64,000 nt of DNA from Squalus acanthias (taxonomy: Eukaryota): NCBI GenBank assembly GCA_030390025.1, contig CM059432.1:92320001-92384000 (forward strand). The letters run 5' to 3'. Every line of letters begins with the position of its first letter. The stretch's first letter is position 1. A program made the position numbers and the translations under genes. Positions 1 to 47,869 of this stretch are shown here, piece after piece. The notes below the pieces were generated by a model. It had not been told where the DNA came from. It saw nothing but the letters and a program-made list of their open reading frames with translations, and ran no database searches.

Positions 1-117
1 AAAAATATCTGGCATAATTAAATTAGTAATGTAACTTCAGATCATATGATAATGTAAACTATCTTAAATAAAGCATTTTCTTCCAGCAGCTTCATCCAAA
101 TGTGTACTGGTACTTAC

Positions 118-497
118 ATGACAGTGAAAAGCTTGACATCATAATTCTGCACAAAAAACCAAAAGCACAGTAAATGCTCATCTACTTAACTAATGTAATC
201 CTCCAATATAACATTTTTAATATCAGTAATGTAATGGCAGAGAGCAGCAGGAACTTCGGGAGCAGTGCTGAGGGAGGACTCTGCCTTTCGTCAGGTCTTT
301 TTATTACTGGACTGGGAAGATTGCTAAACTATGATGAATAAGGACGTCTGGATATTGAAATATTGCAGAACTCCAGCTCATATAGAAAAACTTCCTCATC
401 CATCCCATCTATAGTTTCAGGAAGGCAATAACAGAGGAAGAGTAGAGAACATGTTTGATTCATCATTACCAAAATGTAAGAAGGCTGTATTACTTGT
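118..497 (-). pseudogene. Decayed exon of the long minus-strand gene (3'-most in window, KIAA0825-like region)
   Basis: Minus strand ...gaacAG| at 497 and |GTAAGT at 117. Reads QVIQPSYILVMMNQTCSLLFLCYCLPETIDGMDEEVFLYELEFCNIS... with in-frame stops. Unique sequence. Confidence 0.5.
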
Positions 498-567
498 CTG
501 TTCAACAATTCAATTTTAAAAAAAAAGCAAAATTGTTTTTCTTTGTTAATCCAACTAAATATACAGC

Positions 568-1672
568 AACTGGATACAGCAAAGGCTATGGGGCCCGACA
601 ACATCCCGCCTATCGTGCTGAAGACTTGTGCTCCAGAACTAGCCGCGCCTCTAGCCAAACTGTTCCAGTACAGCTACAACACTGGCATCTATCCGACAAT
701 GTGGAAAACTGCCCAGGTATGTCCTGTCCACAAAAAGTAGGAAAATTCCAACCCGGCCAATTACCACCCCATCAGCCTAATCTCAATCATCAGCAAAGTG
801 ATTGAAGGTGTCATCGACAGTGCTATCAAGCGGCACTTACTCACCAATAACCTGCTCACTGATGCCCAGTTTGGGTTCCGCCAAGACCACTCGGCTCCCG
901 ACCTCATTACAGCCTTGGTCCAAACATGGACAAAGGAGCTGAATTCCAGAGGTGAGGTGAAAGTGACTGCCCTTGACATCAAGGCAGCATTTGACCGAGT
1001 GTGGCATCAAGGAGCCATAGTAAAACTGAAGTCAATGGGAATCAGGGAAAATGCTCCACTGGCTTGAGTCATACCTAGCACAAAGGAAGATGGTTATGGT
1101 GGTTGAAGGTCAATCATCACAGCCCCAAGACATCGCTGCAGGAATTCCTCAGGGCAGTGTCCTAGGCCCAACCATCTTCAGCTGCTTAATCAATGACCTT
1201 CCCTCCAACATAAGGTCAGAAATGGAGATGTTCGCTGATGACTGCAAAGTGTTCAGCGCCATTCACAACTCCACAGATAATGAGTGCAGCTCCAACAACA
1301 CTCAAGAAGCTCAACACCATCGAGGACAAAGCAGCCCACTTGATTGGCACCCCATCCACCACCTTAAACATCCGCAACCTCTTCCACCTAGAAGGACAAG
1401 GGCAGCAGGCGCATGGGAACACCACCACCTCCAAGTTACCCTCCAAGTCACACACCATCCTGACTTAGAAGTATATCGCCGATCCTTCATCGTCGTTGGG
1501 TCAAAATCCTGGAACTCCCTCCCTAACAGCACTGTGGGACTACCTTCACCACATGGACTGCAGCGGTTCAAGAAGGCAGCTCACCACCACCTTCTCAAGG
1601 GCAACTAGGGATGGGCAATAAATGCTGGCCTTGCCAGCGATGCCCAGATCCCACAAACGAATAAAAAAAAAA
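568..1672 (+). mobile_element. 5'-truncated CR1-group non-LTR retrotransposon, family A (RT C-terminal half, ends HHHLLKGN + polyA), two internal deletions
   Basis: RT motifs QFGFRQDHS, LDIKAAFDRVWH, GIPQGSVLGP, FADD. 3' UTR and A tail at ~1660-1672. Closely similar to 10792-13680 (opposite strand) and 47870-48709. Confidence 0.93.
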
Positions 1673-4600
1673 TCCTTCCTTAAATAAGGAGAACACAACT
1701 GTACGCAGTACTCAAGGTGGTCTCACCAATACCCTGTGCATTTGTAGCAGGACTTCCCTGCTTTTATACTCCAACCCCCTTGCAATAAAGGCCAACATTC
1801 CATTTGCCTTTTTGATTACTTGCTGTACCTGCATGCTAACTTTTTGTGTTTCATGCACAAGGACCCCCATGTCCCTCTGAACTAGCATTTTGTAATCTCT
1901 CTCCATTTAAATAATAATTTGCTTTTTTATTTTTCCTGCCAAAGTGGATAACCTGACACTTTCCCACATTATACTCCATCTGCCAAATGTTTGCCCACTC
2001 ACTTAGCCTGTCTATATCCCTTTGCAGATTCTTTGAGTCCTCTGCACAACTTACTTTCCCACTCATCTTTGTATCATCCGCAAACTTGGCTACATTACAC
2101 TCGGTCCCTTCATCCAAGTCATTAATGTAGATTGTAAATAGTTTAGGCCCCAGCACCGATCCCTGTGGCACCCCACTAGTTACTGTTTGCCAACCGGAAA
2201 ATGACCCATTTATCCCAACTCTCTGCTTTCTGTTAGTTAGCCAATTCTCTATCCATGCTAATATATTACCCCCAACTCCGTGAGCTAATGGCCCAGAAAT
2301 TAGGCTCCCTGGCTTCCCGCGGGTGCAAGGATCCCGCGCGCACCTACCTACCACGCCTGCCGTTGACCTCTGGGCCCACAGGGACTTCATCTCCTGGGCC
2401 TGCCCCAACTGCCAGCGCGCAGTGCTTGCGTGTCCCAGGGGCGTAGTTAGTGCGATGCGTCCCCTGGGATCACGTGGGCCATGGAGAGCCAATGGCAGCA
2501 GACCATCTTTCATTCATAGATTTGACAGACCTGTCAAATCTATGAATTGAAATCGGCCCCAAAACAACACCTAAACTTCAAATAATTTTTTTTTAAAACC
2601 ATCACATTTTAAAAATAACTATAAGTTAAATAAATTAACTACTTTAAACAAAAATTTAAATTTTTGAAAAAATTAAAATACTTTTTAACAGTGCTAAAAA
2701 TAAACTTACCTTTCTTTAAAGTATCTAAAAAAGATAAACCTGTTGAAAAAATGTTTAAATTATAATTAATTAACCACTTACCTTGTTGAAAACGGGTCCT
2801 GCGCCTCCTTTTTAAAAGCGCAGGTTCTTCAATACTTACCCTCCCGGAGAAACCTGAAAAAAAACCTAAGTTTGCTGTGTGCGCGCAGCCTCTACCACGC
2901 ACACGGTTCACCTCTGAACCGCTCCCTTCACGAGACCGGAAGTTCCGGTTTCCCACGCATGCGCAGTGCATGCAGGAAACCAGCACTTCAGGAGGCCTTA
3001 CGGGTGAGTACACAGTCCGGCAAGTGCCGAATTTTTGGCCCCTTATCTTATGCAATAACCTTTTATGTGGCACCTTATCGAATGCCTTCTGGAAATCCAA
3101 ATACACCACATCCACTGGCTCACCTTTATCTACCCTGCTCGTTACATCCTCAAAGAACTCCAGCAAATTTGTTAATCATCATTTCCCTTTCATAAAACCA
3201 TGTTGACTCTGCTTGATTGCATTATGATTTTCCAAATGCCCTGCTACCGCTTCCTTAATGAAGGACTCCAGCATTTTCCCAACGACAGATGTTAGGCTAA
3301 CTGGTCTATAGTTTCCTGCTTTCTGTCTCCCTCCCTTCTTAAATAGGGGTGTTACATTTGCGGTTTTCCAATCCGCTGGGACCTCTCCAGAGTCCAGGGA
3401 ATTTTGGTATATTGTAACCAATGCATCCACTATCTCTGCAGCCACTTCTTTTAAGACCCTGGTCCAGGGGACTTGTCGTCTTTTCGTCCCATTATTTTAC
3501 CAAGTACTTTTTCCTTAGTGATAGTGATTGTTTTTAGTTCCTCCCTCCCTGTGGCCCTTTGATTATCCATTATTGGGATGTTGTTGGTGTCTACTACCAT
3601 GAAGACAGATACAAAATATTTGTTCAGAGTCTCTGCCATTTCCCCGTTCCCCATTATTAATTCCCCATTCTCATCCTCTAAGGGACCAACGTTTACTTTA
3701 GCTACTCTCTTCCTTTTTATATACCTGTAGAAGCTCTTACTATCTGTTTTAATATTTCTTGCCAGTTTACTCTCATAATTCATCTTCTCTCTCTTTATTT
3801 TTTTTAGTCATCCTTTGCTGGTTTTTAAAATTTCCCAATCCTCTGGCCTCCCACCAATCTTGGCAACATTGTATGCCTTCGTTTTCAATTTGATACCATC
3901 CTTTACTTCCTTAGTTAGCCACGGATAGTGCTTCCTTCTCTTAAAATCTTTCTTTCTCACTGGAATATATTTCTGTTGAGAGTTATGAAATATCTCCTTA
4001 AATGTCCGCCACTGCATTTCAACTGTCTTACCTTTTAATTTATTTTTCCAGTCCACTTTAGCCAGTTCTGCCCTCATGCCATTGTAATTGACTTTGTTTA
4101 AGATCAGGACACTGATTTGAGATACAACTTTCTCACCCTCCAACTGAATTTGAAATTCAACCATGTTATGATCACTCTTACCTAGAGGATCCTTTACTAT
4201 GAGATCATTTATTAATTCTGTCTCATTACACAGTACCAGATCCAAGATAGCCTGCTCCCTGGTTGGTTCCATTACATACTATTCTAGGAAACCATCCCGG
4301 ATACACTCTATGAACTCCTCCTCAAGGCTACCATGGCCAATTTGATTTGCCCAATCAATATGGAGATTAAAATCACCCATGATTATTACCGTAACTTTTT
4401 TACAGGCCTCCATTATTTGTTGATTTATACTCTGTCCAACAGCATTGCTACTGTTCGGGGGCCTGTAGACTACGCCCACCAGCGACTTTTTCCCTTATTA
4501 TTTTTTATCTACACCCAAACCGATTCTACATCTTGATCTTCTGAGCCAATATCACTTCTCACCACTGCACTGATCCCATCCTTTATCAACAAAGCCACCC

Positions 4601-4991
4601 CACCTCCCTTTCCTTTCTGTCTATCCTTCGGAATTGTCAGATACCCTGGAATATTCAGTTCCCAGTCCTGGTCACCTTGCAACCACGTCTCTGTAATGGC
4701 GATCAGATCATACCCATTTGTATCTATTTGTGCCATCAACTCATCTATCTTGTTACGAATGCTGCGTGCATTCAGATATAGAGCTTTTAATTTTGTCTTT
4801 TTACCATTTCTCCTTGTTTTGGCCCTATTTTCTGTTGCACTCTTATTTTTACACATTCGGTCCCTTCCTGTCACACTCTGGTTATTATTTCCCCTATCTC
4901 TATCCTGCTCTATTGTTTTCTCATTTCTCATTGACTTTTTAAATTCCCGCTCACCTGAACCCTCCCTCCCACTACTTAGTTTAAAGCCCTC
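1673..4991 (-). mobile_element. CR1 LINE family B, 5' part (end of ORF1, APE endonuclease, RT), broken just after EYCVQ
   Basis: YLNARSIRNK, ITETWL, GDFN, LDLVL, SDH, QHGFMKGK, YLDFQKAFDKVPH, GVPQGSVLGP, FADD. Same subfamily as 23574-26313. Confidence 0.95.
2290..3041. mobile_element. Harbinger-type non-autonomous DNA transposon (MITE) inserted in CR1-B
   Basis: Ends GGCCCAGAAATT ... AATTTTTGGCCC. CR1 RT sequence resumes on both sides. Internal palindrome ttcatagatttgacag-a-c-ctgtcaaatctatgaa at ~2513-2547. Confidence 0.75.
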
Positions 4992-7900
4992 TCGAATAAC
5001 AAGGGTGATAGATAGGGCTTTAAGCTAATGAAGGGGTGTGGGAGGATTCAGGAAAGGGTAAATTCAAAAGCAGTAAGATAAATGTCAGGACTGCAGAGCA
5101 GAGTATTGATTTGGCTAAAAATAAGCAATGTGGATCAGGAAGGGACAGAGAGCTTAATAAAGGTAATAGGGCATCAGTGACTACATAGGATTATATAGGA
5201 CATATGGCACAGAAACAGGCCATTCGGCCCAACCAGTCCATGCCGGCGTTTATGCTCCACACGAGCCTCCTCCCGTCTTTCCTTATCTAAATCTATCAGC
5301 ATAACCCTCTATTCCCTTCTCCCTCATATGCTTGTCTAGCCTCCCCTTAAATGCATCTATACTATTCGCTTCAACCACTCCCTGTGGTAGTTCCACATTC
5401 TCACCACTCTTGGGTAAAGAAGTTTCTTCTGAATTCCCTATTGTATTTCTTGATACTATCTTATATTGATGGCCTCGAGTTATGCTCTTCCCCACAAGTG
5501 GAAACATTCTCTCTGTATCCACTCTATCAAAACCTTTCATAATTTTAAAGACCTCTATTAGGTCACCCCTCAGCCTTCTTTTTTCAAGAGAAAAGAGACC
5601 CAGCCTGTTCATCCTTTCCTGATATGTATACCCTCGCATTTCTGGTATCATCCTTGTAAATCTCTCTGCACCCTCTCCAGTGCCTCTATATCCTTTTTAT
5701 AATATGGCGACCAGAACTGTACGCAGTACTCCAAGTGTGGTCTAACCAAGGTTCGATACAGGTTTAGCATAACTTCCCTACTTTTCAATTCTATACCTCT
5801 AGAAATAAACTCTAGTGCTTGGTTTGCTTTTTTTATGGCCTTGCTAATCTGTGTCGCAACTTTTAGTGATTTGTGTATTTGTACTCCAAGTTCCCTTTGT
5901 TCCTCTACTCCACCTAGACTCGCCCCCTCCACGTAATAAGTGACCTCCCTATTCTTCCTACCAAAATGTAATACCTCACATTTGTCTGTGTTGAACTTCA
6001 TTTGCCAATTATATGCCCATTCTGCAAGTTTATTAATGTCCTCCTTTTGTTACAGTTCTCCTCAGTATTGACCATCCCCCCAATTTGGTGTCATCCACAA
6101 ATTTAGAAATTGTGTTTTTGATTCCAAATCTAAATCGTTAATGTAAATTGTGAACAGCAGTGGTCCCAGCACTGATCCTTGTGGAACACCACGACCCACC
6201 TTCTGCCACTGTAAATAGCTACCCTTTACTCCTACTCTCTGCTTTCTGTCCTGAAGCCAGCCAGCAATCCATTCTGCTACTTGTCCCCTGACTAAGGTGA
6301 CATCAGGGAAAAATAGAAAACATTAAAGCTAAAGACATTATATCTGAATGTATGAAGCATTCGTAACAAAATAGATTAATTAATAGCAGGGATAGAAATA
6401 AATGGGTTTGATCTAACAGCCATTACGGAGACGTGGTTGCAGAATGACCAAGGTTGGGAACTAATAAATATTCCAGGATACTTGACTTTTAGAAGAGATA
6501 AGCAGAATAGAAAAGGTGGGGAGGGGCGGGGGGAGCCCTGATAATAAAGGATGGGATAAAGACAGTTATGAGAAAGGATCTTAGCCTGGAAAAACAAAAT
6601 GTAGAATCACTTTGGGTGGAGCTAAGAAACAACAAGGGGCAGAAAACACTGATGATTCAGTTAAGTCTGAAACTAGGGTCTTAAATCTGAACAAAGCAAA
6701 CTACATAGTTATGAGAGGCGAGTTGGCTAAGGTAGGTTGGGAAACTAGATTAAAAGATATGACGGTAGATAAGCAATGACAAACATTTAAAGAAATAATT
6801 CATAATTCGCAACGAATATACATTCCCTTAAGGAATAAAAACCCCACGGGGAAAATGGTCCAACCATGGCTAACATGAGAAGTTAAAGATAGTATTAGAA
6901 TAAAGTAAGAGGTTTATAATGTTGCTAAAAAGAATAGTAAGCCTGAGGATTAGGAGGATTTTAGAATTCAGCCAAGGAGGACCAGGAAATTGATAGAGAA
7001 AAGAGAGTATGAGAGTAAACTAGCAAGAGACATAAAAACAGATTGTAAGAGTTTCTATAGGTATGTAAAAAGTAAGAGATTAGCTAAAGTAAACATAGGT
7101 TCCTTACAGGCAGAGACAGGAGAAATTATAATGGGGAATAAGGAAATGGCAGAAACATTAAACAAATACTTTTAAATCTTTCTTCACGGAAGAAGACACA
7201 AAAAACATTCCGGAAATAGTGGGGAACCAAGGGTCTAGTGAGAATGAAGAACTTAACGAAATTAGTATTAGTAAAAAAAATAGTACTGGAGAAATTAATG
7301 CAACTAAAAGCCAACAAATCCCCTGGACCTGATGGCCTACATCCTAGGGTTTTAAAAGAGGTAGCTACAGAAGTAGTGGGTGCATTGGTTTTGATCTTCT
7401 AGAATTCCCTAGATTCTAGAATGGTCCCAGTGGATTGGAAGGTAGCAAATGTAACCCCGCTATTCAAGAAAGGAGGGAGAAAGAAAACAGGGAATTATAG
7501 ACCAGTTAGCCTGACATCAGTAGCAGCTAGATTCTATTATTAGGGACGTTAGAAAATCATAATATGATTGGGCAGAGTCAATACGGATTTATGAAAGGGA
7601 AATCATGTTTGACAAATCTAATAGAGTTTTTTGAGGTTGTAACTAGCAGGGTAGATAAAGGGGAACCAGTAGATGTAGTGTGTTTGGATTTTCAGAAAGG
7701 ATTTGATAAGGTGTCACACAAAAGGTTATTATACAAAATTAGGGCTCATGGGATTGGGGTAATATATTAGCATGGATTGAGGATTGGCTAATGGACGGAA
7801 AACAGAGAGTAGGAATAAATGTGTCATTTTCGGGTTGGCAGGCTTTAACTAGTGGGGTGCCACAAGGATCAGTGCTTTGGCCTCAGCTATTTTCAATCTA

Positions 7901-8866
7901 TATCAATGACTTAAATGAGGGGGCCGAGTGTAATGTATCCAAGTTTGCTGATGATAAAAAGCTAGGTGGGAAAGTAAGTTGTGAGGAGGATGCAAAGTGG
8001 CAGCAAAGGGATATAGACAGGTTAAGTGAGTGGGCAAGAACATGGCAGATGGAATATAATGTGGAGAAATGTGAAGTTATCCACTTCGGTAGGAAGAATA
8101 GAAAAGCAGAATATATATTAAATGGTGAGAGATTGGGAAATGTTGGTGTTCAGAGGACCTGGGTGTCCTTGTACACAAATCACTGAAAGTTAACATGCAG
8201 GTACAACAAGCAATTAGGAAAGCAAATTGTATGTTTGCCTTTATTACAAAAGGATTGGAGTATAAGAGTAAAGAGATCTTATTGCAATTATATAGGGCCT
8301 TGGCGAGACAATACCTGGAGTACTGTGCACAGTTTTGGTCTCCTTTGGTTAAGGAAGGATATACTTGTCTGAGAGGAAGTGCAATGAAGGTTCACCAGAC
8401 TAATTCCTGGGATGTGGGGATTGTCCTATGAGGAGAGATTGAGGAGACTAGGCCTATATTCCCTAGAAATTAGAAGAATGAGAGGTAATCTCATTGAAAC
8501 ATATAAAATTCGTACAGGGCTTGACAGGGTAGATGCAGGGAGGATTTTTTCCCCTGGCTGGGGAGTCTAGAACCAGGGGTCACAGCCTCAGAATAAGGGG
8601 GCGGCCATTTAGGACTGAGAAGAGGAGAAATTTCTTCACTCAAAGGGTGGTGAATCTTTGGAATTCTCTACCCCAGATGCTCAGTCGTTGAGTATATTCA
8701 AGACAGAGATTGATAGATTTTTGGATATTAAGGGAATCAAGGGATATGGGGATCGGGCAGGAAAGTGGAGTTGAGGTCGAAGATCAGCCATGATCTTATT
8801 GAATGGCGGAGCAGACTCGAAGGGCTGAATGGCCGACTCCTGCTCCTATTTCTTATGCGTTTATGT
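4992..8866 (+). mobile_element. CR1 LINE family C, 3' part (ORF1 C-terminus RITRVIDRALS*, endonuclease, RT, 3' tail), degenerate
   Basis: ORF fragments with QYGFMKGKSCLTNL, GVPQGSVL, FADD, LEYCAQFWSP. Tail TCCTATTTCTTATG at ~8845-8865. Confidence 0.92.
5184..6288 (-). mobile_element. CR1 LINE family D, 5'-truncated, nested in CR1-C
   Basis: RT C-terminal ORFs (MKFNTDKCEVLHFG, HLEYCVQFWSP, RRLRGDLIEVFK). Flanking TGACTA at 5178-5183 and 6289-6294. Confidence 0.92.
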
Positions 8867-8924
8867 TTGAGGCCCAAATTTCTGACGTGGAATTTCACCT
8901 ATTGTGTGTTCATTTGTCATACAG

Positions 8925-9026
8925 TAGCAGAAATATCGCAACTAGATATTGCAGTAACATTTTAGAAGCCATAAAAAGAAGAATTATTGCACTAAAAATA
9001 TCAGTACAACTCAAACAGGAGATAAA
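8925..9026 (+). pseudogene. Decayed exon of the long gene, flipped to plus strand by the inversion
   Basis: catttgtcatacAG| acceptor and |GTAATG donor. Reads AEISQLDIAVTF* (or SRNIATRYCSNILEAIK in another frame). Confidence 0.4.
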
Positions 9027-9136
9027 GTAATGTTATTTATACTTTTCATGTGGAAGGATTTTGCAGCTTTAACTACATTAATCTTTTACGTTTATCATTT
9101 GGAATTTATTTCTGACTTTTATTTATTTTTATTTAG

Positions 9137-9328
9137 TTGTGTATAATTTACTGTTCTGTCTAAATGGACCATCTGTAGAAGCTGATAAGAGAAAATAAAC
9201 ACTGGATAATATCCACCCGTCGGCAGAATACAGGCTGTATTGTCTATTGTACAGAAGGCACTTGCCTCACAGACATGTTGTTGCTGAAATTCTGTGTCAG
9301 ACTGCTGAGTGGATAGACCACAATGAAA
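9137..9328 (+). pseudogene. Decayed exon of the long gene, flipped to plus strand by the inversion
   Basis: tttatttttatttAG| acceptor, weak donor. Reads VYNLLFCLNGPSVEADKRK*TLDNIHPSAEYRLYCLLYRRHLPHRHVVAEILCQTAEWIDHNE with a single stop. Confidence 0.45.
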
Positions 9329-9335
9329 GTATAAT

Positions 9336-10683
9336 GGTTAGAAATTTGATCGCGTTGTGCCCATTTTACAGGCATAAAACAGACACCTAAGGATCCAATA
9401 TGGCGTGCAGTGCACCGCTTGACATATTACGCGCACTAGAATTATTTAAAAGCCTCATAGTAATATTTAAATAAGGGTCCTACGCTTGTTGTAGGACTCT
9501 TTTGTGAAATTGGTCTACCTCAGCGCCTGACTCACCACGTGATAAAAACGCTCAGCAACTCACCCACAGTGCTCTCCTGCCACCTTTCTGAATAGAAAGG
9601 TGTTCCATTCCCTCAACGTCTAGCTCGTTTACAACCATAGGCTGCGCATCATACAGAGCTGTGCCCGGAACCCAGACACACCTGCAGAGCCGGCCCACAA
9701 TGAGACTTCATGCCTCCACCAGAAACGTGATCGCGCAGACAGTCAACATGTTCTAAAATCGCTTCCCCTGAATGGACCGTTCAGGAAGAGCTTTACAGTA
9801 CAGCCTTGAGTGGATACCCAGATTTGCTGCATGCTACATAACATTGACATCATGAGGGTGCAGCCCTTCCCACCACTTGGGTAATATGAAGCGCAGGAGG
9901 AGGAGGAGCAGGAAAAGGTGGAGCAGTATGAAGAGGAGGAAGAGCAGTAGCCATGTCGACCACCAGTGCCATAAATCCTCACACCAAATTCAGAACAATT
10001 TTTTTTTTATCCAACAACTGGGGGTGCACATGCACAAATCTTTGATGGTGGCAGGACAAGTTGAGAAGGTTGTTAAAAAAGCATACGGGATCCTCGGCTT
10101 TATAAACAGAGGAATAGAGTACAAAAGCAAGAATGTTATGCTAAACCTTTATAAATCAGTGGTTAGGCCCCAGCCAGAGTATTGTGTCCAATTCTGGGCT
10201 CCACATTTTAGGAAGGATGGTACCAGGGATATGGGACCTCTGTTATGTGGAAAAACTAGAGAAGTTGGGGGTTTTCTCCTTAGAGCAGAGAAGGTTAAGG
10301 GGAAATTTAACAGTGGTGTTCAAAATCATGAAGGGTTGTCATAGAGTAAATAAGGAGAAACTGTTTCCAGTGACAGAAGGATCAGTACCCAGAGGACAAG
10401 ATGAGGAGAAATCTTTTTACACAGCGAGTTGTTATGATCTGGAATGCTCTGTCTGAAAGGGTGGTGGAAGCAGATTCAATAATAACTTTCAAATGGGAAT
10501 TGGCAGCCCTGGCCCCCAAACAGGTGCTCAACCAATGAATAATTTGGGTAGCGATGGCTGCTCGCCTGAGTCATGATAATTAGCTGGTAGCATCAATGTC
10601 ACGTGGTCCCTGCGAACAGGCACATGCACTGCGTGCTCTACCCCCGGCACACCCATTTACAGGCATGACCAAATTTCTAGGCC
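9336..10683. mobile_element. Harbinger-derived element carrying a nested CR1 3' fragment (~10015-10503, +)
   Basis: Ends GGTTAGAAATTTG ... CAAATTTCTAGGCC. Subterminal ccatt(t)tacaggcat repeats. CR1 piece encodes KKAYGILGFINRGIEYKS. Confidence 0.6.
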
Positions 10684-10791
10684 TTTGTGTCTGTACCAAT
10701 CCCAATATGGCTGCGGCCTGGTATTAATTATATTGATTAATAAAAACAATTTTGATTGGTTGTATGTAGTTGGCAACAGATTAACTAGAGA

Positions 10792-13680
10792 TTTTTTTCA
10801 ATTTGTTTATGGGATGTGGGCGTCGCTGGCAAGGCCAGCATTTATTGCCCATCCCTAATTGCCCTTGAGAAGGTGGTGGTAAGCCGCCTTCTTGAACTGC
10901 TGCAGTCTGTGTGGTGAAGGTACTCCCACAGTGCTGTTATGGAGGGAGTTCCAGGATTTTGTCCCTGCGACGATGAAGGATCGGCGATATACTTCTAAGT
11001 CAGGATGGTGCGTGACTTGGAGGGGAACTTGGAGGTGGTGGTGTTCCCATGCACCTGCTGTCCTTGTCCTTCTAGGTGGAAGAGGTCGCGGGTTTGGGAG
11101 GTGCTGCTGAAGAAGCCTTGGCGAGTTGCTGCAGTGCATCTTGTAGACGGTACACACTGCAGCCACGGTACGCCGGTGGTGGAGGGAGTGAATGTTTAAG
11201 GTGGTGGATGGGGTGCCACTCAAATGGGTTGCTTTGTCCTGGATGGTGTCGAGCTTCTTGAGTGTTGTTGGAGCTGCACTCATCCTGGCAAGTGGAGAGT
11301 ATTCCATCACACTCCTTAATTGTGCCTTGTAGATGGTGGAAAGGCTTTGGGGAGTCAGGAGGTGAGACACTCGCTGCAGAATACCCAGCCTCTGACCTGC
11401 TCTTGTTGCCACAGTATTTATGTGGCTGGTCCAGTTAAGTTTCTGGTCAATGGTGACCCCCGGGATGTTGATCGTGGGGGATTCGGCGATGGTAATGCCA
11501 TTGAATGTCAAGGGGCGGAGGTTAGTCTCTCACTTGTTGGAGATAGTCAGTGCCTGGCACTTCTGTGGCGCGGATGTTACCTGCCACTTATCAGCCCAAG
11601 CCTGAATGTTGTCCCGGTCTTGTTGCATGCGGGCATGGACTGCTTCATTATCTGAGGAGTTGTGAATGGTGCTGAACACTGTGCAGTCATCAGCGAACAT
11701 CCCCATTTCTGACCTTATGTTGGAGGGAAGGTCATTGATGAAGCAACTGCAGATGGTTGGGCCTAGGACACTGCCCTGAGGAACTCCAGCAGCGATGTCC
11801 TGGGGCTGTGATGATTGACCTTCAACCACCACAACCACCTTCCTTTGTGCTTGATATGGCTCCAGCCAGTGAAGCGTTTTCCGCCTGATTCCCATTGACT
11901 TCAGTTTTACTAGGGCTCCTTGCTACCAGACTCGGTCAAATGCTGCTTTGATGTCAAGGGCAGTCACTTTCACCTCACCTCTAAAATTCAGCTCCTTTGT
12001 CCATGTTTGGACCAAGGCTGTAATGAGGTCAAGAGCCAAGTGGTCTTGGCGGAACCCAAACTGGGCATCAGTGAGCAGGTTACTGGTGAGTAAGTGCCGC
12101 TTGATAGCACTGTCGATAACACCTTCCATCACTTTGCTGATGATTGAGAGTAGACTGATGGGGCAGTAATTGGCCGGGTTGGATTTGTCCTGCTTTTTGT
12201 GGACAGGACATACCTGGGCAGTTTTCCACATTGTCGGATAGATGCCAGTGTTGTAGCTATACTGGAACAGCTTGGATAGAGGCGCGGCTAGTTCTGGAGC
12301 ACAAGTCTTCAGCACGATAGCCGGGATGTTGTCAGGGCCCATAGTCTTTGCTGTATCCAGTGTGCTCAGCCATTTCTTGATATCATGTGGAGTGAATCGA
12401 ATTGGCTGAAGACTGGCTTCTGTGATGGTGGGGACCTCGGGAGTAGGCCGATATGGATCATCCACTTGGCACTTCTGGCTGAAGTTGGTTGCAAACGCTT
12501 CAGCCTTGTCTTTTGCACTCACATGCTGGGCTCCACCATCATTGAGGATTGGGATATTCTTGGAGCGTCCTCCTCCCGTTAGTTGTTTAATGATCCACCA
12601 CCATTCACAACTGGATGTGGCAGGACTGCAGAGCTTTAATCTGATCCGTTGATTGTGGGATCGCTTAGCCTTGTCTATAGCATGCTGCTTCCGCTTTTTA
12701 GCATGCATGTAGTCCTGTGTTGCAGCTTCCCCAGGCTGGCACCTCATTTTTAGGTACGCCAGGTGCTGCTCCTGGAATGCTCTTCTACACTCCTTATTGA
12801 ACTAGGGTTGGCCCCCTGGCTTGGTGGTAATGGTAGAGTGAGAGATATGCCGGGCCATGAGGTTACAGATTGTGGTGGAATACAGTTCTGCTGCTGCTGA
12901 TGGCCCACAGTGCCTCATGGATGCCCAGTTTTGAGCTGCTAGATCTGTTCTGAATCTATCCCATTTAGCACGGTGGTAGTGCCACACAACACGATGGAGG
13001 GTGTCCTCAGTGTGAAGATGGGACTTCGTCTCCACAATGACTGTGTGGTGGTCAATGCTACAAATGCTGTCGTGGACAGATGCATCTGCGACAGGTAGAT
13101 TGGTGAGGACGAGGTCAAGTAGGTTTTTCCCTCGTGTTGATTCACTCACCACCTGTCGCAGGCCAAGACTGGCAGTTATGTCCTTCAGGACTCGGCCAGC
13201 TCGGTCAGTAGTGGTGCTACCGAGCCACTCTTGGTGATGGACATTGAAGTCCCCCACCCAGAGTACATTCTGTGCCCTTGCTACTCTCCGTGCTTCTTTC
13301 AAGTGGTGTTCAACATGGAGGAGTACTGATTCATCAGCTGAGGGAGGGCGGTAGGTGGTAATCAGCAGGAGGTTTCCTTGCCCATGCTTGACCTGAAGCC
13401 ATGAGACTTCATGGGGTCCGGGTTCAATGTTGAGGACTCCCAGGGCCACTCCTTCCCGACTGTATACTACTGTGCCACCACCCCTGGTGGGTCTGTTCTG
13501 TCGACGGGACAGGACCTAGCCAGGGATGGTGATGGAGGAGTTTGGGACATTGGCTGAAAGGTATGATTCTGTGAGTATGACTATGTCAGGCTGTTGCTTG
13601 AATAGTCTGTGGGACAGCTCTTCCAATTTTGGCACAAGTGCCCAGATGTTGGTGAGGTGGACTTTGCAGGGTTGACTTGC
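10792..13680 (-). mobile_element. CR1-group family A LINE, nearly complete ORF2 (APE + RT)
   Basis: ORFs 12802-13449 (YRPP, GDFNVHH, LDLVLTN), 11923-12747, 11530-11895 (GVPQGSVLGP, FADD) and 10855-11511 (..HHLLKGN). T-rich tail at ~10792-10808. Confidence 0.95.
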
Positions 13681-14192
13681 ATTGGAGGCAGTTCAGAGAC
13701 GATTCACTAGGTTAATTCCAGAGATGAGGGGGTTGACTTATGAAGAAAGGTTGAGCAAGTTGTGCCTATACTCATTGGAATTTAGAAGAATGAGAGGTGA
13801 TCGTATTGAAACATATAAGATACTGAGGGGGCTCGACAAGGTAGATGCAGAGAGGATGTTTCCCCTCATGGGGAAATCTAGAACTCGGGGGCATAGTTTC
13901 AGAATAAAGGGTCGCCCTTTTAGAACTGAGATGAGGAGGAATTTCTTCTCTCAGAGGGTCGTAAATCTGTGGAATTCTCTGCCCCAGAGAGCCGTGGAGG
14001 CTGGGTCATTAAATACATTTAAGGTGGAGATAGACAGATTTTTGCAAGATAAGGGAGTGAAGGGTTATGGGGAGTGGGCAGGGAAGTGGCTTTGAACCCA
14101 AGATCAGCCATGATCTTATTGAATGGCGGAGCAGGCTCGAGGGGCCAAGTGGCTTATTCCTGCTTCTATTTCTTATGTTCTTATGTTCTTAT
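13675..14192 (+). mobile_element. CR1 LINE family B, 3' part (continuation of 1673-4991)
   Basis: Starts ACTTGCATTGGAGGCAG, where the 1673 piece stops (compare the intact copy at 25771-25810). Ends in a (TTCTTATG)n tail. Confidence 0.93.
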
Positions 14193-14379
14193 GATTTGCC
14201 AGGACACTGATCCCAGCCCGGTTTAAGTTCAGCCCGTCCCAATGGAACAGCTCCCTCTTTCCCCAGTACTGGTGCCAGTTCCCCATGAATTGAAACCCCT
14301 GCCTCCCACACCACTCTTTCAGCCACACATCTAATGTTCTAATCTGCTTGTCCCTGTTAGACATCCTGAAGAGATTTAT

Positions 14380-14555
14380 TAGCAAAATACTGCGGATGCT
14401 GGAAATCTGAAATAACAACAGAAAATGCTGGAAATACTCAGCAGGCCAGGCAGCATCCGTGGAGAGAGAAACAGACCTGAAACGTTAACTCTATTTCTCT
14501 CTCCACGGATGCTGCCTGGCCTGCTGAGTATTTCCAGCATTTTCTGTTGTTATTT
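14380..14555. mobile_element. Penelope-like terminal fragment forming a ~62-bp perfect inverted repeat
   Basis: Arms ~14410-14471 and ~14494-14555 are reverse complements. Same sequence as the Penelope end at 61865-61960. Flanked by 14-bp direct repeat CTGAAGAGATTTAT (14366-14379, 14556-14569). Confidence 0.85.
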
Positions 14556-14781
14556 CTGAAGAGATTTATGTTGGACATCTTGGGGAGTTAAAAGTTTAAC
14601 AGTTGACTTTCTCTGTATCTTAAAGCAACAGGCTTTCCAAGATATAAACAGGATGACACTGAAGTGTCGTAAAAGGAATGCATTGTCAGGCTTTCCGATA
14701 TAAACAGGATGACTTTGAAGTGTTGTGAGGAGAAGGCATTGCTTGTTATCTGAGATGTAAAGTGCTTGTGTAAGGGACTAA

Positions 14782-15647: not shown

Positions 15648-15867
15648 TAAGTGTTAGTAATGACATCACCCATAAATGGTTTAGTTTTAGGGTAATAAAA
15701 CAGGGGTAGCGAGTCTATTTGCTAAAGGTAACAGTAGGTAAAGGAAGTTTTGTTTAAGGGAAATGATTCTGAAGTAAACAATTGCAAACTGTTTACATAG
15801 TCTATTTTCAGAGGATTTGGGAAATAGATGTCATTTTCACATTTTCCTTTGATGTAGTTAAAATATG

Positions 15868-16762
15868 GGGGGAGAAATTCAGTATCGCCCCATTTGGGGC
15901 GCAATTATCGGCCGGGCACAAAGATTAGCGCTTGGCGCTAATTATCGCCTCCGACTGCAAACTTGACTTTTATCACCCCTGGAGGTGATTGGAGCACTAA
16001 ATCAGGCGCTACACATCTGTCTTAAGGCGCAAAGGCCGAGAAGCGAAGCGCTAACTCAGAGCGCTGGCGAAGCTCATGTGATGTCAGTCAGCAATGGAAC
16101 ACAGACACAATGGCGCTGGCCAGTTCTTAAAGGGGAGGGTTGATCTTGCTTTCCATCCACATCCTGCTCATTGCAGCCTTGAATCTCGGCCTGGAGAGAC
16201 CTGTACATCAAATCTGCTGGAAAGAACAATGGAGAGGCCCAGGGATAGAGCTCAGAGTGCAAACCCCACAGTCTCTTCTAAATCGATACAAGGAAGGGCA
16301 AATCAAAATGAACCTGCAAAGTGCTGCTCAGTACCCAAAACTCCTTCACACAGCGTTGAATCTCTCCAGAAGTCTCTCTCTCTCTCTCTCTCAGAATGCA
16401 TGGTTCAAAAATGTCACCAACAAAAAAAGGCAGGAAGCGGTCGCCTTTAAATAGCGCTCCCCCAGTCCCTTCCTGACTGCAAAACGCTCCCCTCAACCTG
16501 TCGTTGCTAGCGGCAGGCGGTAAGGCAGGGGGCGCCACTCAATATCCGCTCCGGGGCGCTACCGGGGCGTTGCGCACTCGACTGACGTCACGATCTGCCG
16601 GCGCAGGAGATCGTGGCGGTAGTGTTTAGCACCGCCGCAAAATGTCTAGTTAATTTCACGAGCGGCGCAAACATCGCCGTGCCCGGGCGCTAATTGCTTT
16701 GCGCCCCATTAGCACCCTCTTAAGGCGCTAACGGGAGGCGCAACCAACTGAATTTTTCCCCC
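15868..16762. mobile_element. Harbinger-type MITE, copy 1 (GC/CpG-rich)
   Basis: TIR GGGGGAGAAATTCAG / CTGAATTTTTCCCCC. 3-bp TSD ATG. Near-identical copy at 46499-47389. Confidence 0.9.
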
Positions 16763-17262
16763 ATGGTCTATAAAGGAGCATTGCTTTCAATAGTTTGTCA
16801 GAGTGTACTCAAAAGATACAGAAACCGAATATCCACTCTCTGTACGCAGTTAAGACTAATCACCTTTACTGTGTATCAATAAAGTCTGTCCCGTATACTC
16901 CACTGCAAAGTCTCGTGCTTACTCGAAATGTGTTGTTGTGAACCAGAGGAGAAAGGAGGTTGCTTAACAGTCCCTATGTCAATGGCTCAGGTAACAATCC
17001 AGAGATTATTACCTGTGAGGTTCTATGTTTTAATTTGGACCCGAGCTCCTCAAACTCTGTCAGCGGAACCTCATTCCTAGTTCTACCTATGTCATTGGTT
17101 CCTAAGTGGACCACGACAACCGGATACACACCTCCCACTCCAAGTCCTATTCCAGCCGCGAGGAGATATCCTTAACCCTGGCACCAGACAGGCAACACAG
17201 CCTTCGGAACTCCCATCGCGCTGCAGAGAACAGTATCTATCTCCCCTACCACTACAACATTC

Positions 17263-22180: not shown

Positions 22181-22521
22181 ATAAAATGAGTAATTTCCGC
22201 TGTCATTTTTAAAAATTCTTGTCTGGCACATATTTTTGTTGTAAACCTATTCCATTGAATGCATACTGTATGACTACAGCCTTCACGTTCATTTTGAGGA
22301 CTGTAAACAGAAGCTGTATCCAGAAGGTAATTGGCTATTCTTCGCAATCAATAGTGTAGAACTTCCATGAAGCTGTCCTGATCTTCCATCATAACTTTAG
22401 CAGAAGATGTCCTGATCTTCCATCATAACTTTAGCAGAAGATGTCCTGATCTTCCATCATAACTTTAGCAGAAGATGTCCTGATCTTCCATCATAACTTT
22501 AGCAGAAGATTAGGAGAAACC
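22181..22521 (-). pseudogene. Decayed exon containing a 34-bp tandem expansion
   Basis: atttctacAG| acceptor. With the repeat collapsed it reads KVMMEDQDSFMEVLHY*LRRIANYLLDTASV...ARQEFLKMTAEITHF. Confidence 0.5.
22374..22509. repeat. Perfect tandem repeat, 4 x 34 bp (TGTCCTGATCTTCCATCATAACTTTAGCAGAAGA)
   Basis: Units start at 22374, 22408, 22442 and 22476. No spacers. Confidence 0.97.
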
Positions 22522-23573
22522 CTGTAGAAATGGCATAAATGGTCATTTTTGCTGTTTCTCTAGAGTTTACACCGTTATCCCACCAAAGTTATGGAGGGAT
22601 CAGGAAAACAGGTAAATGTGATTTTAAAACGTTATTCTAATGTAAGAAAACAGTGTGTATGAGTCACATAAACTCAGTAAAATAGGTGATGAAGCCTAGT
22701 GTCTTAAATATGCCTGTAAAAAAAACCATCAGAATTCTTCCTCATAAATAGTGCCATTCCCCTTTAATGCCCGGCCAGTGGCCGTTCCATTGCATTTAAA
22801 TTAGGTCAAGTGGGCTTTTTTTTCCCCAACTTCTGCTCCAAACTCAACCCTAATTATTACTGCCACAATATAAGTAGTGGTATAAGCAGCGGAGTGGTAT
22901 CCCTACTGTGATTAGCACATTGAGGACATTGTTTTGTTTGCTGTGGCTGAAGGTTTGTCTTACTTTGACTACATATCAATTTTAGCTGTTTGGTTACCTG
23001 GAAGTTAGAATCATAGAATCATAGAATGGAAGAAGGCCATTCGACCCATCGAGCCCATGCCGGCTCTCAGCTAGTCCCACTCCCCTGCCCTTTCCCCGTA
23101 GCCCTACAAATTTTTTCCTTCAGGTACTTATCCAACTCCCTTTTGAAAGCCATGATTGAGTCTGCCTCCACCACCCTTTCAGGCAGTGCATTCCAGATCA
23201 TAACCAATCGCTGTGTAAAAAAGTTTTTTCTTATGTCACCTTTGGTTCTTCTGCCAATCACTTTAAATCTGTGTCCTCTGGTTCTCGACCCTTCTGCCAA
23301 TGGGAACAGTTTCTCTCTATCTACTCTGTCCAGACCCCTCATGATTTTGAACACCTCTGTCAAATCTCCTCTCAATCTTCTCTGCTCCAAGGAGAACAAC
23401 CCTAGCTTCTCCAGTCTATCAACATAACTGAAGTCCCTCGTTCCTGGAACCATTCTTGTAAATCTTTTCTGCACCCTCTCTAAGGCCTTCACATCCTTCC
23501 TAAAGTGTGGTGCCCAGAATTGGACACAGTACTCCAGTTGGTGCCGAACCAGTGTTTTATACAGGTTCATCAT

Positions 23574-26313
23574 GGATGAACATGAAATATAAAAACAGAT
23601 AGTAAGAGCTTCTACAGGTATATAAAAAGGAAGAGAGTAGCTAAAGTAAACATTGGTCCCTTAGAGGGTGAGACTGGGGAATTAATAATGGGGAACAGAG
23701 AAATGGCAGAGACTTTGAATAAGTATTTTATATCAATCTTCATGGTAGAAGACACTAAAACCATCCCAATAACACATAATCAAGGGGCTATAGGGAGGGG
23801 GGGACTTAAAACAATCACTATCACTAAAGAAAAAGTACTCGGTAAAATAATGGAACTAAAGGTGGACAAGTCCCCTGGACCTGATGGCTTGCATCCTAGG
23901 GTCTTAAAATAAGTGACTGCAGAGATAGTGGATGCATTGGTTGCAATCTACCAAAATTCCCTGGACTCTGGAGAGGTCCCAGCGGATTGGAAAACCGCAA
24001 ATGTAACACCCCTATTTAAGAAGGGAGGGAGACAGAAAGCAGGAAACTATAGACCAGTTAGCCTAACATCTGTCGTTGGGAAAATGCTGGAGTCCATTAT
24101 TAAGGAAGCAGTAGCAGGACATTTAGAAAATCATAATACAGTCAAGCAGAGTCAGCATGGTTTTATGAAAGGGAAATCATGTTTGACAAATTTGCTGGAG
24201 TTCTTTGAGGATGTAACGTGCAGGGTGGATAAAGGGGAACCAATGGATGTGGTGTATTTGGATTTCCAGAAGGCATTCAATAAAGTGCCACATAAAAGGT
24301 TACTGCACAAGATAAGAGGTCACGGGGTTGGAGGTAATATATTAGCATGGATAGAGAATTGGCTAACTAACAGAAAGCAGAGAGTCGGGATAAATGGGTC
24401 ATTTTCCAGTTGGCAAACAGTAACTAGTGGGGTGCCACAGGGATCAGTGCTGGGGCCTCAACTATTTACAATCTATATTAATGACTTGGATGAAGGGACC
24501 GACTATAATGTAGCCAAAGTTGCTGATGTTACAAAGATAGGTGGGAAAGCAAATTGTGAAGAGGACACAAAGGGGGGAATTTTCCCAGCCGTGGGGAGGC
24601 GGGTATGGAGGCGGGACTGCCAGGAAAATGGCAGAAACTGGGAGCGGGTACCAACCCTGCTCCCACCCGCCTCCATGCCATCTTCCCGGGAGATGGGTTC
24701 CCGACTCACGCAGGGACCCGTCTCCTCAAGGCGGGAAGGGGATTAGAGCCAATTAACTACCTGTTAACAGGTAGTTAACAGGCAGTTTTGAGGCTTATCC
24801 CCATTTTACCCCTGCAAGTGCGGGCTTCCCGACAGCTGCGAACCTCACCAGGGTCAGCAAGGTGAGCAGTGGGTCTGCGGGGGTGAGAGGGATCGAAAAG
24901 TCCACTGTAGAGGTGAGTGATGGGTGCAAGTGTGGAGAGGTAAATATGAGAGGTGAGTGTAAAATGTTGAAAAAAGTTTCCTTACCTTTCCTTCTTCCTG
25001 CAGACTTCAACCCTTGGGGATCCGGAGGTGCCTCATCTCAACGACAGAGATGACAGAATGGCTGCTGCATTCTCAGATGCAGCATCCATCTGCTTTCTGC
25101 TGAGGAGAGAGGTTTTGGTGAGCCTTCAGCGCAAGGGCTCACCTTAGAATAGAGATTGAGAGATTGTCAGTGTTTGACAGCTTCTCAAAGCTGTCAAACG
25201 CTGACAATTCATCTGTCAAAAAATTTTCGACAGATGAAACGTCATACGCTGATGTCCTCTGTCACTGGCTTTCCCTTAATTGGCCGGTAAGCCCACAGGG
25301 CGGGCTTAACAAGGTCAATCAAGGGAAAATAGAGTGGGTTGGCCAGACATTGCTGGGGCGGGCCTGAAACCCGACAACCAGCAGTCCCGCCCCCAACGCA
25401 CCCCCATTAACAAAATCCAGCCCAAAGAATCTGCAAAGGGATATAGATAGGCTAGGTGAGTGGGCAAACATTTGGCAGATGGAGTATAATGTGGGAAAGT
25501 GTGAGGTTATCCACTTTGGTAAGAAAAATAAAAAAGCAAATTATTATTTAAATGGAGAGAGATTACAAAATGCTGCAGTACAGAGGGACCTGGGGGTCCT
25601 TGTGCATGAAACACAAAAAGTTAGCATGCAGGTACAGCAAGTAAACAGGAAGGCAAATGGAATGTTGGCCTTTATTGCAAGGGGGCTGGAGTATAAAAGC
25701 AGGGACGTCCTGCTACAACTGTACAGGGTATTGGTGAGACCACACCTGGAGTACTGCGTACAGTTTTGGTCTCCTTATTTAAGGAGGGATATACTTGCAT
25801 TGGGGGCAGTTCAGAGAAAGTTCACGAAGTTGATTCCTGAGGTGAAGGGGGTTGACTTATGAAGAAAGGTTAAACAGGTTGAGCCTATACTCATTGGAGT
25901 TTAGAAGAATGAGAGGTGATCTTATTGAAACATATAAGATACTGAGGGGGCTCGACAAGGTAGATGCAGAGAAGATGTTTCACCTAATGGGGGAATCTAG
26001 AACTGGGGGCATAGTTTCAGAATAAGGAGTCGCCCATTTAAAACTGAGATGAGGAGGAATTTCTTCTCTCAGAGGGTCATAAATCTGTGGAATTCTCTGC
26101 CCCAGAGAGCTGTGGAGGCTGGGTCATTGAATATATTTAAGGTGGAGATAGACAGATTTTTGAACAATAAGGGAGTAAAGGGTTATGGGGAGCGGGCAGG
26201 GAAATGGAGCTGAGCCCAAGATCAGAACAGCCATGATCTCATTAAATGGCGGAGCAGGCTCGAGGGGCCAAATGGCCTACTCCTGCTCCTATTTCTTATG
26301 TTCTTATGTTCTT
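23574..26313 (+). mobile_element. CR1 family B, 5'-truncated (RT to 3' tail)
   Basis: ORF 23913-24746 carries RT motifs. ATCAT TSD (23569-23573, 26314-26318). (TTCTTATG)n tail. Confidence 0.95.
24572..25423. mobile_element. Harbinger non-autonomous element nested in CR1-B
   Basis: AAA TSD. Ends GGGGGGAATTTTC ... AAAATCCAGCCC. Shares the subterminal block cttaattggccgg..agggcgggcttaacaaggtcaatcaagg with 14782-15647. Confidence 0.88.
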
Positions 26314-26799
26314 ATCATAATTTCCACACTTTTGTACTCTATACCTCTATTTATGAAGCCCAGGATCCCGTAAGCCTTTTTAACTGCTTTCTCAACCTGC
26401 CCTGCCACCTTCAACGATTTGTGCACACATACCCCCAGGTCTCTCTGCTCGTGCACCCCCTTTAGGATTGTACCATTTAGTTTATATGTCCTCTCCTCAT
26501 TCTTTCTACCAAAATGTATCACTTCACACTTTTCTGCGTTAAATTTCATCTGCCACGTGTCCGCCCATTCCACCAGCCTGTCTATGTCCTCTTGAAGTCT
26601 ATCAGTCTCCTCCTCACTGTTCACTATACTTCCAAGTTTTGTGTCATCTGCAATTTTTGAAATTGTGCCCTGTACACCCACGTCCAAGTCATTAATATAT
26701 ATTAAGAAAAGCAGTGGTCCTAGTTCTGTCAACACTTATACTGCGCTGTTTAGTGAGCTCTGCAGAAAGTACAATTTTGGAATGAGAACATGATTTTCC

Positions 26800-36526: not shown

Positions 36527-38676
36527 GATCATAGAATCATAGAATGGTTACAGCACGGAAAAAGGCCATTCGGCCCATCAAGCCCGTGCCCGTGCCAGCT
36601 CTCTGCAAAAACACCTCAGCTAGTCCCACTCCCCGTAGCCCTGCAATTTTTTTTCTTTCAGGTACTTATCCAACTCCCTTTTGAAAGCCACAATTGAGTC
36701 TGCCTCCACCACCCTTTCAGGCAGTGCATTCCAGATCCTAACCACTCGCTGCGTAAAAAAGTTTTTTCTTACGTTGCTCACATTGTAGCGCTCCTCAGCT
36801 TCGTTCGATGGCCTCCTCATCAGTGTCATTAGCCATGTCTTCAGGAGATAGCCCTTGTCTCCAAGTAGCCATCCGGAAAGTTGGGCTGGCAGATTGAATA
36901 GCTGAGGCACAGTAGACTGCCGCAGGATGAACGAGTCATGGCAACTGCCAGGGAACTTGGTGCAAACATGCATAATGTTCTTCCTGTGGTTACACACCAG
37001 CTGGACGTTAAGGGAGTGAATGCCCTTGCGGTTGACAAATACAGCTGGGTTGTGATGGGGTGCCCTAATAGCCACATGTGCGCAGTCTACGACGCCCTGC
37101 ACCCTTGACAAGCCTGCCATATTTGCAAAGCCAACCGCACGCACGGTTACACTTGCTTCATCCGTGGAGAAGTGGATGTAATTGTGCGCCTTTGCAAAGA
37201 GGGCATCAGGTAACCTGCGTGATGCAGGCGTGTGCGGCCGACTGGGAGATGCCGCTGATGTCTGCTGATGATCCCTGGAAAGACCCTGAAGCAAAAAAAT
37301 TGAGTGCAGTGGTGACTTTGACAGCCACTGGTAAGGAGTGTCCACCCGCTCCTCTGGGCTCCAAGTGTTGGTGCAGCATTGCGCAGATGTCAGCGACTAC
37401 CTCTCGCGAAAGTCTCAGCCTCCTTTGGCACTGCTGCTCAGTCATGTTGAGGAAGCTCATCCTCTGTCTGTAAACCCTGTGTTGGGGGTATCTGCTGCGG
37501 CGAGGTGCAGCCCTGCACTGACACCCTCTGCCCTGTGCAACATCAGGTGGCTGAGGAGAAGGTTGGCGCTCCTGTTGTTGCTGCTGCTGTTATGCCTGGT
37601 TCTGCTGCTGCCGCGGCTGCTCTTCCTCCGACTCTGAGGACCAGGATGAGAGGGTATAAATGGTCCCATTCCGCTGGTATATATGTCAGTTGAGGAATAG
37701 ATGTTATAAGCGCTCAGTCAATGTGGGGAGAGGGTTTTCCAAGGAGGTCACAGTGCAGATGGATCTCAGCTTAAACACTTACAAGCTCAATAGACCTGCA
37801 AAATGTGTTCCAACACCTCAAAGCACAAAGTTCTGCCATCTGAAAGTCAGCCATATTACAGGTCCGCTTTTATGCTGCAGGTGCAGCTGTCAAGAATTCA
37901 GGTAGTTGCTGAACACGGCACAATCAGTTGGCGTGTTTGGCGCACGACGTGGAACACACTGAAAATGTCGTAAAATGGGACGAGCCTGCTAAAATGGGAT
38001 TATGTAGACAGTTAACAAGCTGTTAACTGCTTTAAGTGCCTCTCCCGCTGCTTGGTGTCGGGTCTGATCGGGACTCCCAGACCCGACACTTTGCAAAGTT
38101 GCGTGGAGGCGGGATGGCGGCGGGTTCACAACCCACCATCAATCAAAATGACTTTAACCTCTGACCCTCCTCCAAACCCGCCCTCTGAGCGCCGGCAAAA
38201 TCGCGGCCAATACTCCAGTTGAGGCCAAACAGGTGTTTTATATAGGTTCATCATAATTTCCACGCTTTTGTACTCTATGCCTCTATTTATGAAGCCCAGA
38301 ATCCCGTATGCTTTTTTAACTGCTTTCTCAACCTGCCCTGCTACCTTCAACGATTTGTGCACATATACCCCTAGGTCTCTCTGTTCATGCAGCCCTTTAG
38401 GATTGTACCCTTTAGTTTATATTTCCTCTCCTCAAAATGTATCACTTCACATTTTTCTGCATTAAATTTTATCTGCCATGTGTCCGCCCATTCCATCAGC
38501 CTGTCTATGTCCTCTTGAAGTCTATCACTATCCTCCTCTCTGTTCACTATGCTTCCAAGTTTTGTGTCATCTGCAAATTTTGAAGCTGTGCCCTGTACAC
38601 CCAAGTCTAAGTCATTAATATATATCAAGAAAAGCAGTGGTCCTAGTACCGACCCCTGGGGAACACCACTGTATAC
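36527..38676 (-). mobile_element. CR1 family E copy split by a Harbinger insertion plus deletion (36527-36770 and 38209-38676)
   Basis: YSGVPQGSVLGP, FADD, ...QLEY| on the right. [10 protein letters not shown]... and AGAATCAT tail on the left. Confidence 0.9.
36771..38208 (-). mobile_element. Harbinger transposon: 5' TIR plus HARBI1-like transposase (frameshifted, C-terminally truncated)
   Basis: [88 protein letters not shown] at 38208. Confidence 0.93.
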
Positions 38677-46295: not shown

Positions 46296-46498
46296 GCTGC
46301 TTGCAATTTTTGTAAATCAGAATTTTACAGCATTCATTCTTGTGCTGTTGGCTCTAACTGCATTCAGCTCTATAAATACAAATTCTACCTTTATAAAATG
46401 AACAACTGAAGTCTGAGAGAAAATTTCAGGCAAATATTTCTCCCTAATATGTACCTAGAATTAGTTGTGAATAGCAATCTAATCATATTTGTATTATA

Positions 46499-47389: not shown

Positions 47390-47869
47390 ATAATCTCCAG
47401 TTGTGCACTTGGAATGAGGTGGAACTTATTTAAGATTGTCCAGCTATACTTGAAAAGGACTTTGGCCTAGGAGACCCAATGTAGTGTGGCCGTAGTGTCC
47501 CTGGAGCGAGGCAGTGTTCTCTTAAAGCTAGCCTGTCATTTCAGAAAGCAGTGTCGAGCCCTTAAAGGGGATAATAAAGATAATTTCAAAATATGCAGTC
47601 TTTGGCCTTAGAGCTCAACTGCCTTCAGAAAAAAAAATAAACATTAAAAATAATTCCAAAATGGCAGTCTTCAGCTCTTAAAGGTGAACTGCCTTCTGCA
47701 TGTAAAAAATGGTAAAAGTGGTTCAGCTAACACAAATGGCTCAACAAGCCAGGGGAGGGGCAACCAGGGTCACGCACGCAGCACTCCAGCTTTGTGCAGG
47801 GGGTCAACACTACAAGAGAGATCCTCTACCCACAGGTGCCAGGAAGCCCTCCAGAAAGAACAATGTGGG

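Follow-up and report, generated by a model that had tools for sequence, protein, structure and literature searches.

A comparison of the human and chimpanzee genomes described 49 loci with a retrotransposon recombination-mediated inversion (RRMI), 21 of them produced by L1 (PMC2603318). More than half of those L1 inversions exceed 10 kb, the human-specific ones averaging 14,294 bp, and chimeric elements with unmatched duplications are found among them. We describe an inversion between two oppositely oriented copies of a long interspersed nuclear element (LINE), which we call family A, in a 64-kb stretch of the Squalus acanthias genome (contig CM059432.1, positions 92,320,001 to 92,384,000; this whole stretch is the window). 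The inversion is real, and its polarity can be read from two older elements, B and C, each of which is split by it. The elements at the locus are dead transposon DNA that has been flipped, probably long ago; rearrangements of this kind are known, and the present one is well documented. A search of the open literature, by titles and the starts of abstracts, gave no report of a small shark inversion mediated by a LINE.

Two split elements and the inverted segment

The window is LINE-rich and contains no N. The features of the locus are, in their present order:

1–564 (L), no strand: single-copy left flank, with depth 5.6–13 in all four sequencing runs from relatives (bin 1–360)
565–1671 (A1), plus strand: 5'-truncated family A LINE, from the reverse transcriptase (RT) to an A-rich tail, forming the left breakpoint repeat (A2/A3 alignment, RVT_1 match)
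1672–4992 (B5'), minus strand: 5' part of the CR1 element B, with the last codons of open reading frame (ORF) 1, the endonuclease (EN) and the RT; broken near the end of ORF2
2287–3041: insert within B5' with inverted ends, resembling a miniature inverted-repeat transposable element (MITE); skipped by relatives' contigs
4993–8867 (C3'), plus strand: 3' part of the older CR1 element C, with the last 11 ORF1 codons, ORF2 and tail (ORF1 end matches homologue P0003)
5190–6289 (D), minus strand: a further CR1 fragment, lying antisense within C and flanked by a target duplication of 5 bp (junction strings)
8868–10791 (Y), no strand: remainder of the inverted segment, single-copy DNA and old repeats
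10792–13674 (A2), minus strand: family A LINE that begins at the EN domain and ends with the tail, forming the right breakpoint repeat
13675–14193 (B3'), plus strand: 3' end and tail of B (474/518 columns match the reference B copy)
14194 to about 14358 (C5'), minus strand: ∼55 codons preceding the ORF1 break of the 5'-truncated C, from an esterase-type ORF1
1672–10791: minimal inverted segment of 9,120 bp (at most 11,802 bp, 565–12366, depending on the crossover position)

Element B is cut at one point. On the minus strand, its 5' part stops at 1672, where the poly(A) tail of A1 adjoins it; on the plus strand, its 3' part begins at 13675, next to the 5' end of A2. The junction strings agree with the preliminary description on this cut, and the strings that it quoted are found where it placed them, to within one base. 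Together the two parts miss only 2 bp of an unbroken string at 25775. The copy that carries this string (23574–26318, plus strand), which serves as our reference B and had been taken as intact, is itself 5'-truncated and is interrupted at about 24572–25423. It lies antisense inside another CR1 (23006–26724, minus strand), whose halves are colinear, in reading order and accompanied by a 5-bp duplication. The window thus offers two un-inverted nesting controls, D in C and the reference B in its CR1 host, both with colinear host halves and 5-bp duplications. When 1672–10791 is flipped in silico, the four pieces of B become colinear on a single strand, and A2 comes to lie between reference positions 368 and 371. 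B5' is 90–94% identical to the reference B, which is the closest relative of both halves (among six CR1 pieces compared for B5' and seven for B3').

Element C is split in the same way. Its ORF1 reads GISVLAN on the minus strand down to 14194 and continues with RITRVIDRALS* on the plus strand from 4993: both pieces and the frame are as first described, with each end shifted by one base from the positions given then (14193 and 4992). The join has a 2-bp overlap, keeps the frame and loses no codon, and a homologue (P0003) spans it as VLAN-RITRAVDRALN. A HMMER search with the 55-aa C5' piece gave 76 homologues (a word-indexed protein search with the same piece gave no match), and 17 of these were inspected: three continue with RITR; 12 end 9–14 residues past the matched stretch, like C, two stop after 2, and three run on. 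The GDSL/SGNH model PF13472 matches all seven of the C5' homologues that were scanned (four above the Pfam cut-off); the 55-aa piece itself has no Pfam match.

Because the halves of B and of C rejoin when 1672–10791 is flipped, the inversion and its polarity are both supported. The nesting C[B[A]B]C proposed for the flipped sequence is recovered, with B colinear and C in frame, and the proposed size of ∼9–12 kb agrees with the 9.1–11.8 kb that we obtain.

C is ∼78–80% identical to B. The ORF2 domains of the two elements are PF03372 (APE endonuclease) at 4512–5024 and PF00078 (RT) at 1854–2513 and 7743–8183. B, C and D resemble CR1-clade LINEs in their esterase-type ORF1, in having EN and RT in ORF2 and in their short tandem-repeat tail, but the present copies are dead, truncated and nested. 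We provisionally take them to be CR1 on the basis of these features.

The family A copies do form an inverted pair as first described, with different bounds: A1 spans 565–1671 and A2 10792–13674, and 10792–12366 is only the part of A2 that is shared with A1 (1.1–1.6 kb). A2 is 2,883 bp long; its ORF2, from the EN start to the tail, keeps a single frame and has four internal stops and no frameshift. A1 corresponds to the 3' 1.6 kb of A2 minus two internal deletions. These are of 365 bp (at 1279/1280, with 4-bp microhomology) and 100 bp (at 1371/1372), 92 bp apart. The two copies are identical in 1,024 of 1,094 aligned columns (93.6%; 70 mismatches, 6.4%), evenly along both. A third copy, A3, is found at 47871–48713 (51 mismatches to A2 in 833 columns), and private changes number 16, 13 and 14 in A1, A2 and A3, respectively. 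Family A shares 31% identity with B over 122 RT residues, and its sole named protein match is from Heterodontus francisci (73% identity, 32% of the query covered). Runs of at least four T on its coding strand number 1, 0 and 0 in A2, A1 and A3, and A-runs 12, 7 and 2.

The junction between B and C has a peculiarity of its own. The 5' end of B aligns to C at 5011–5012, 19 nt from the start of C3' and thus from the point homologous to B's own antisense target. B5' and C3' therefore make up an imperfect palindrome, head to head (4981–5023), whose exact stem of 10 bp lies at 4981 and 5014. Such proximity is expected in ∼0.9% of cases by chance (a post hoc figure under a uniform model), and it was seen in one of the three antisense CR1-in-CR1 cases examined. 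It may be a coincidence; more speculatively, B cDNA under synthesis may have annealed to the homologous strand of C and terminated close to the nick, in which case the locus may record a homology-guided 5' truncation of B. The region 4940–5070 folds into a hairpin (−27 kcal/mol, without a shuffle control), which is not used as evidence.

The order of the locus in relatives

Contigs of four runs (X1, X7, X16 and X19; 20 listed) were aligned to positions 1–10791 of the window only. At the 86% likeness used, each run has >500,000 repeat contigs, and the results refer to the contigs listed; the small runs X10–X14 (share ∼0.33) lie outside the comparison and count as no evidence. In pieces of L and Y that look single-copy, mismatches amount to 9/1,438 for X1, 52/1,763 for X16, 102/1,953 for X19 and 85/847 for X7.

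Independent support for the flip comes from X7 (∼10% diverged), in a single-copy contig (record 25; 2,274 bp, depth 10.1). This contig matches window positions 3–559 on the plus strand (record 405–959) and 9575–9870 on the minus strand (record 1273–1564), 313 letters apart. It therefore joins L to a reversed Y, which is the order predicted by the flip and is independent of the CR1 pieces; and because the gap is only 313 letters, there is no room at the L/Y site of X7 for a family A copy of 1.1–1.6 kb. A piece of depth 10.1 in the same run covers 10740–10741 with 52 and 51 letters to its end; the piece therefore stops at 10791, the base that immediately precedes the A2 tail. The right end of Y, reverse-complemented, adjoined L in the ancestral order, and the ancestral orientation for which the preliminary description had suggested looking in sister species is thus present in a relative, on one contig of one run. 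The 313 letters of the contig compare with 921 in window 9871–10791, so that ∼600 bp of Y either came in later or were lost in X7; the DNA concerned is probably a CR1 fragment at 10018–10503 and a repeat at ∼10510–10700.

Contigs of X16 and X19 run from L into A1 by 29 and 23 bases (ending at 598 and 592), which indicates that family A had reached the L site before the split of those lineages. Contigs in each of the four runs pass over 2286>3042 and also over 5177>6289, which makes the MITE-like insert in B and the fragment D in C later insertions.

The end of L (528–540) and the end of Y (10742–10754) share a 13-bp inverted match; in the ancestral order the two would stand close together as a direct repeat. 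Its score was reached in 13 of 5,000 shuffles and in 62 of 19,564 AT-rich pairs (p about 0.003). We rejected it as a target duplication, as it is offset from the junction; it gives weak support for adjacency only.

How the inversion may have arisen

The nesting shows the order of insertion: C came first, B then entered the end of C ORF1 in antisense, and two copies of family A, oppositely oriented and ∼9 kb from each other, arrived later, in B and at the single-copy L/Y site. A crossover within the 1.1–1.6 kb shared by these inverted copies would have flipped the DNA between them, and each present A copy would be a chimera whose 5' flank stems from one insertion and whose 3' flank stems from the other. 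Both breakpoints do lie inside inverted LINEs of the same family. We consider it likely that ectopic recombination between the two finished, inverted A copies caused the inversion; this was also the proposal of the preliminary description and stands as the best reading, with the mechanism itself inferred and the un-inverted two-copy intermediate seen in no relative. The inversion probably is old and took place when the A copies were more alike than they are now. Their divergence (6.4%) falls between the distances of X19 and X7, so that insertion between those two splits fits, although repeats and flanks may change at different rates.

Several observations weigh against this account. None of the contigs listed for the four runs spans A1 (A2 lies outside the stretch compared), and no relative was seen in which the two A copies accompany an un-inverted order. 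The assignment of the piece that reaches 10791 to the X7 contig is inferred from equal depth. Next to its break, B is nearer to the reference (18/364 mismatches) than B3' is (44/518; p=0.045, one of two tests). No clear target duplication was found at A1, A2 or A3. No conversion tract was found between A1 and A2 either, their longest exact match of 66 bp being at chance level (p=0.56); this result fits an old event, or else a crossover that left no long tract of conversion. Placing the crossover by diagnostic differences between A1 and A2, as had been suggested, yields no resolvable position: A3, the sole other reference, is equidistant and shares only 401 columns with A1.

An alternative of low but appreciable probability is that the inversion was coupled to insertion: a new A cDNA, primed at one site, recombined with an inverted copy already present at a distance of 9 kb, or the ends of two insertions made at the same time (or of two breaks patched by A cDNA) were joined to each other, so that an un-inverted two-copy state never existed. 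The same four junctions are expected in this case, and both LINE bridges and exchanged flanks are present. A1, A2 and A3 are equidistant, as copies of similar age would be. The insertion site of family A in B shows a 2-bp loss instead of a duplication, and small deletions are on record where L1 forms reciprocal junctions (10.1101/2024.12.14.628481). In tumours, synchronous L1 insertions have been described as a source of reciprocal inversions (10.1101/2024.08.27.596794), in a report that dismisses post-insertion recombination only because the intermediate is unseen in its data. These precedents, however, come from tumours and L1-induction models, not from germline evolution, and two concurrent events within 9 kb should be a priori rarer than recombination of neighbouring inverted repeats. 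Moreover, tail and 5' end are ordinary in A1 as well as in A2, and neither copy shows the twin-priming inversions or split bridges that several of the tumour cases have. That the retrotransposition reaction itself made the inversion in a vertebrate germline, and that it was then inherited, is a little more doubtful still; if true, the locus would be an evolutionary fossil of the process described in tumours. No report of a germline insertion-coupled inversion was found in titles and abstract starts of the open literature.

Ectopic recombination between finished copies also has to be set against an assembly artefact, in which the true order would be un-inverted and the assembly would have switched strand inside the A pair. 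The four A junctions are present whichever order is the true one, and the lack of a contig across A1 extends even to X1, with its 9/1,438 mismatches. We nevertheless regard such an error as very unlikely: A1 and A2 share only 1.1–1.6 kb, which is 6.4% diverged, carries the 365- and 100-bp deletions and has no exact match longer than 66 bp; the window has no N, and its other repeat pairs of 90–94% identity are resolved; and reads longer than ∼2 kb should span either copy.

It is hardly credible that B5', B3', C5' and C3' arose as separate truncated insertions whose ends happen to match, even in a region dense in CR1 fragments and with the marginal local difference between the B halves, since the joint chance of two unrelated break pairs matching so closely is ∼2e-6 (uniform-breakpoint model) and the X7 contig, which joins L to reversed Y independently of CR1, contradicts it unless that contig is chimeric. 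Independent insertion of the B halves had been named at the outset as a point that could undo the inversion; pooled over their lengths the halves diverge alike from the reference (97/1,341 mismatches for B5' versus 44/518 for B3', p=0.38), and only the local comparison beside the break (p=0.045) departs from this.

Surroundings and comparison with known systems

The locus looks neutral, and no working gene was found in the searches made; short exons or regulatory elements may still be present. Among 121 open frames of at least 75 aa beyond 15 kb, none has a non-transposon Pfam match; no Rfam family and no tRNA was found in the window; and six-frame translations of L and of 8868–9400 gave short open stretches only. 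Inside the inversion, the Pfam scan covered the transposon frames and the translation covered 8868–9400 (L was translated too).

Other repeats occur in the window. A head-to-head palindromic repeat of ∼180 bp (14365–14570) has a 63-bp exact inverted match and a flanking 14-bp direct repeat, and single arms of it recur at 57016–57108 and 61864–61958. Two GC-rich copies of 0.9 kb (15864–16764 and 46495–47391) are 94% identical, have inverted ends and are MITE-like by appearance. A remnant of a DDE_Tnp_4 transposase (E 5e-21) lies at 36623–37396 on the minus strand, and its frame continues into a CR1-type 3' end. There are also two tandem arrays: one of 24-bp units (56376–56614; about 10 identical copies) and one of 35-bp units (about 22380–22510; ∼4 copies).

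In a large vertebrate survey, inversions and duplications together made up <0.2% of the called variants, partly for technical causes (PMC13320814). The split nested LINEs of one genome suffice to detect and polarise a small inversion, and here an outgroup contig agreed; the approach could help to count small inversions in LINE-rich genomes.

Galileo-generated inversions in Drosophila buzzatii are reportedly large, chromosomal ones. They arise by ectopic recombination of oppositely oriented transposon copies (PMC2775673), as the present inversion probably did, but Galileo is a DNA transposon, and the event described here is a flip of 9–12 kb within transposon debris. L1-bridged reciprocal inversions and translocations that arise in the course of retrotransposition (10.1101/2024.08.27.596794, 10.1101/2024.12.14.628481) have a LINE bridge at each breakpoint and exchanged target flanks; they differ in being somatic or experimental, recent, and often complex in their bridges.

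The RRMI loci (PMC2603318) differ from ours in several respects: here the LINE is not an L1, the genome is cartilaginous-fish-like, there are no usable target duplications, and the polarity comes from split host elements and a LINE-free outgroup site, with no pre-recombined copies and no crossover window. The likeness to them lies in the inverted LINEs of the same family at both breakpoints, the exchanged flanks, the size of ∼10 kb and the overall unchanged length. Inverted LINEs of one family are found at the breakpoints here, the segment between them is reversed relative to the ancestral order, and the exchange of flanks at the A copies is read from B and from L and Y instead of from target duplications.

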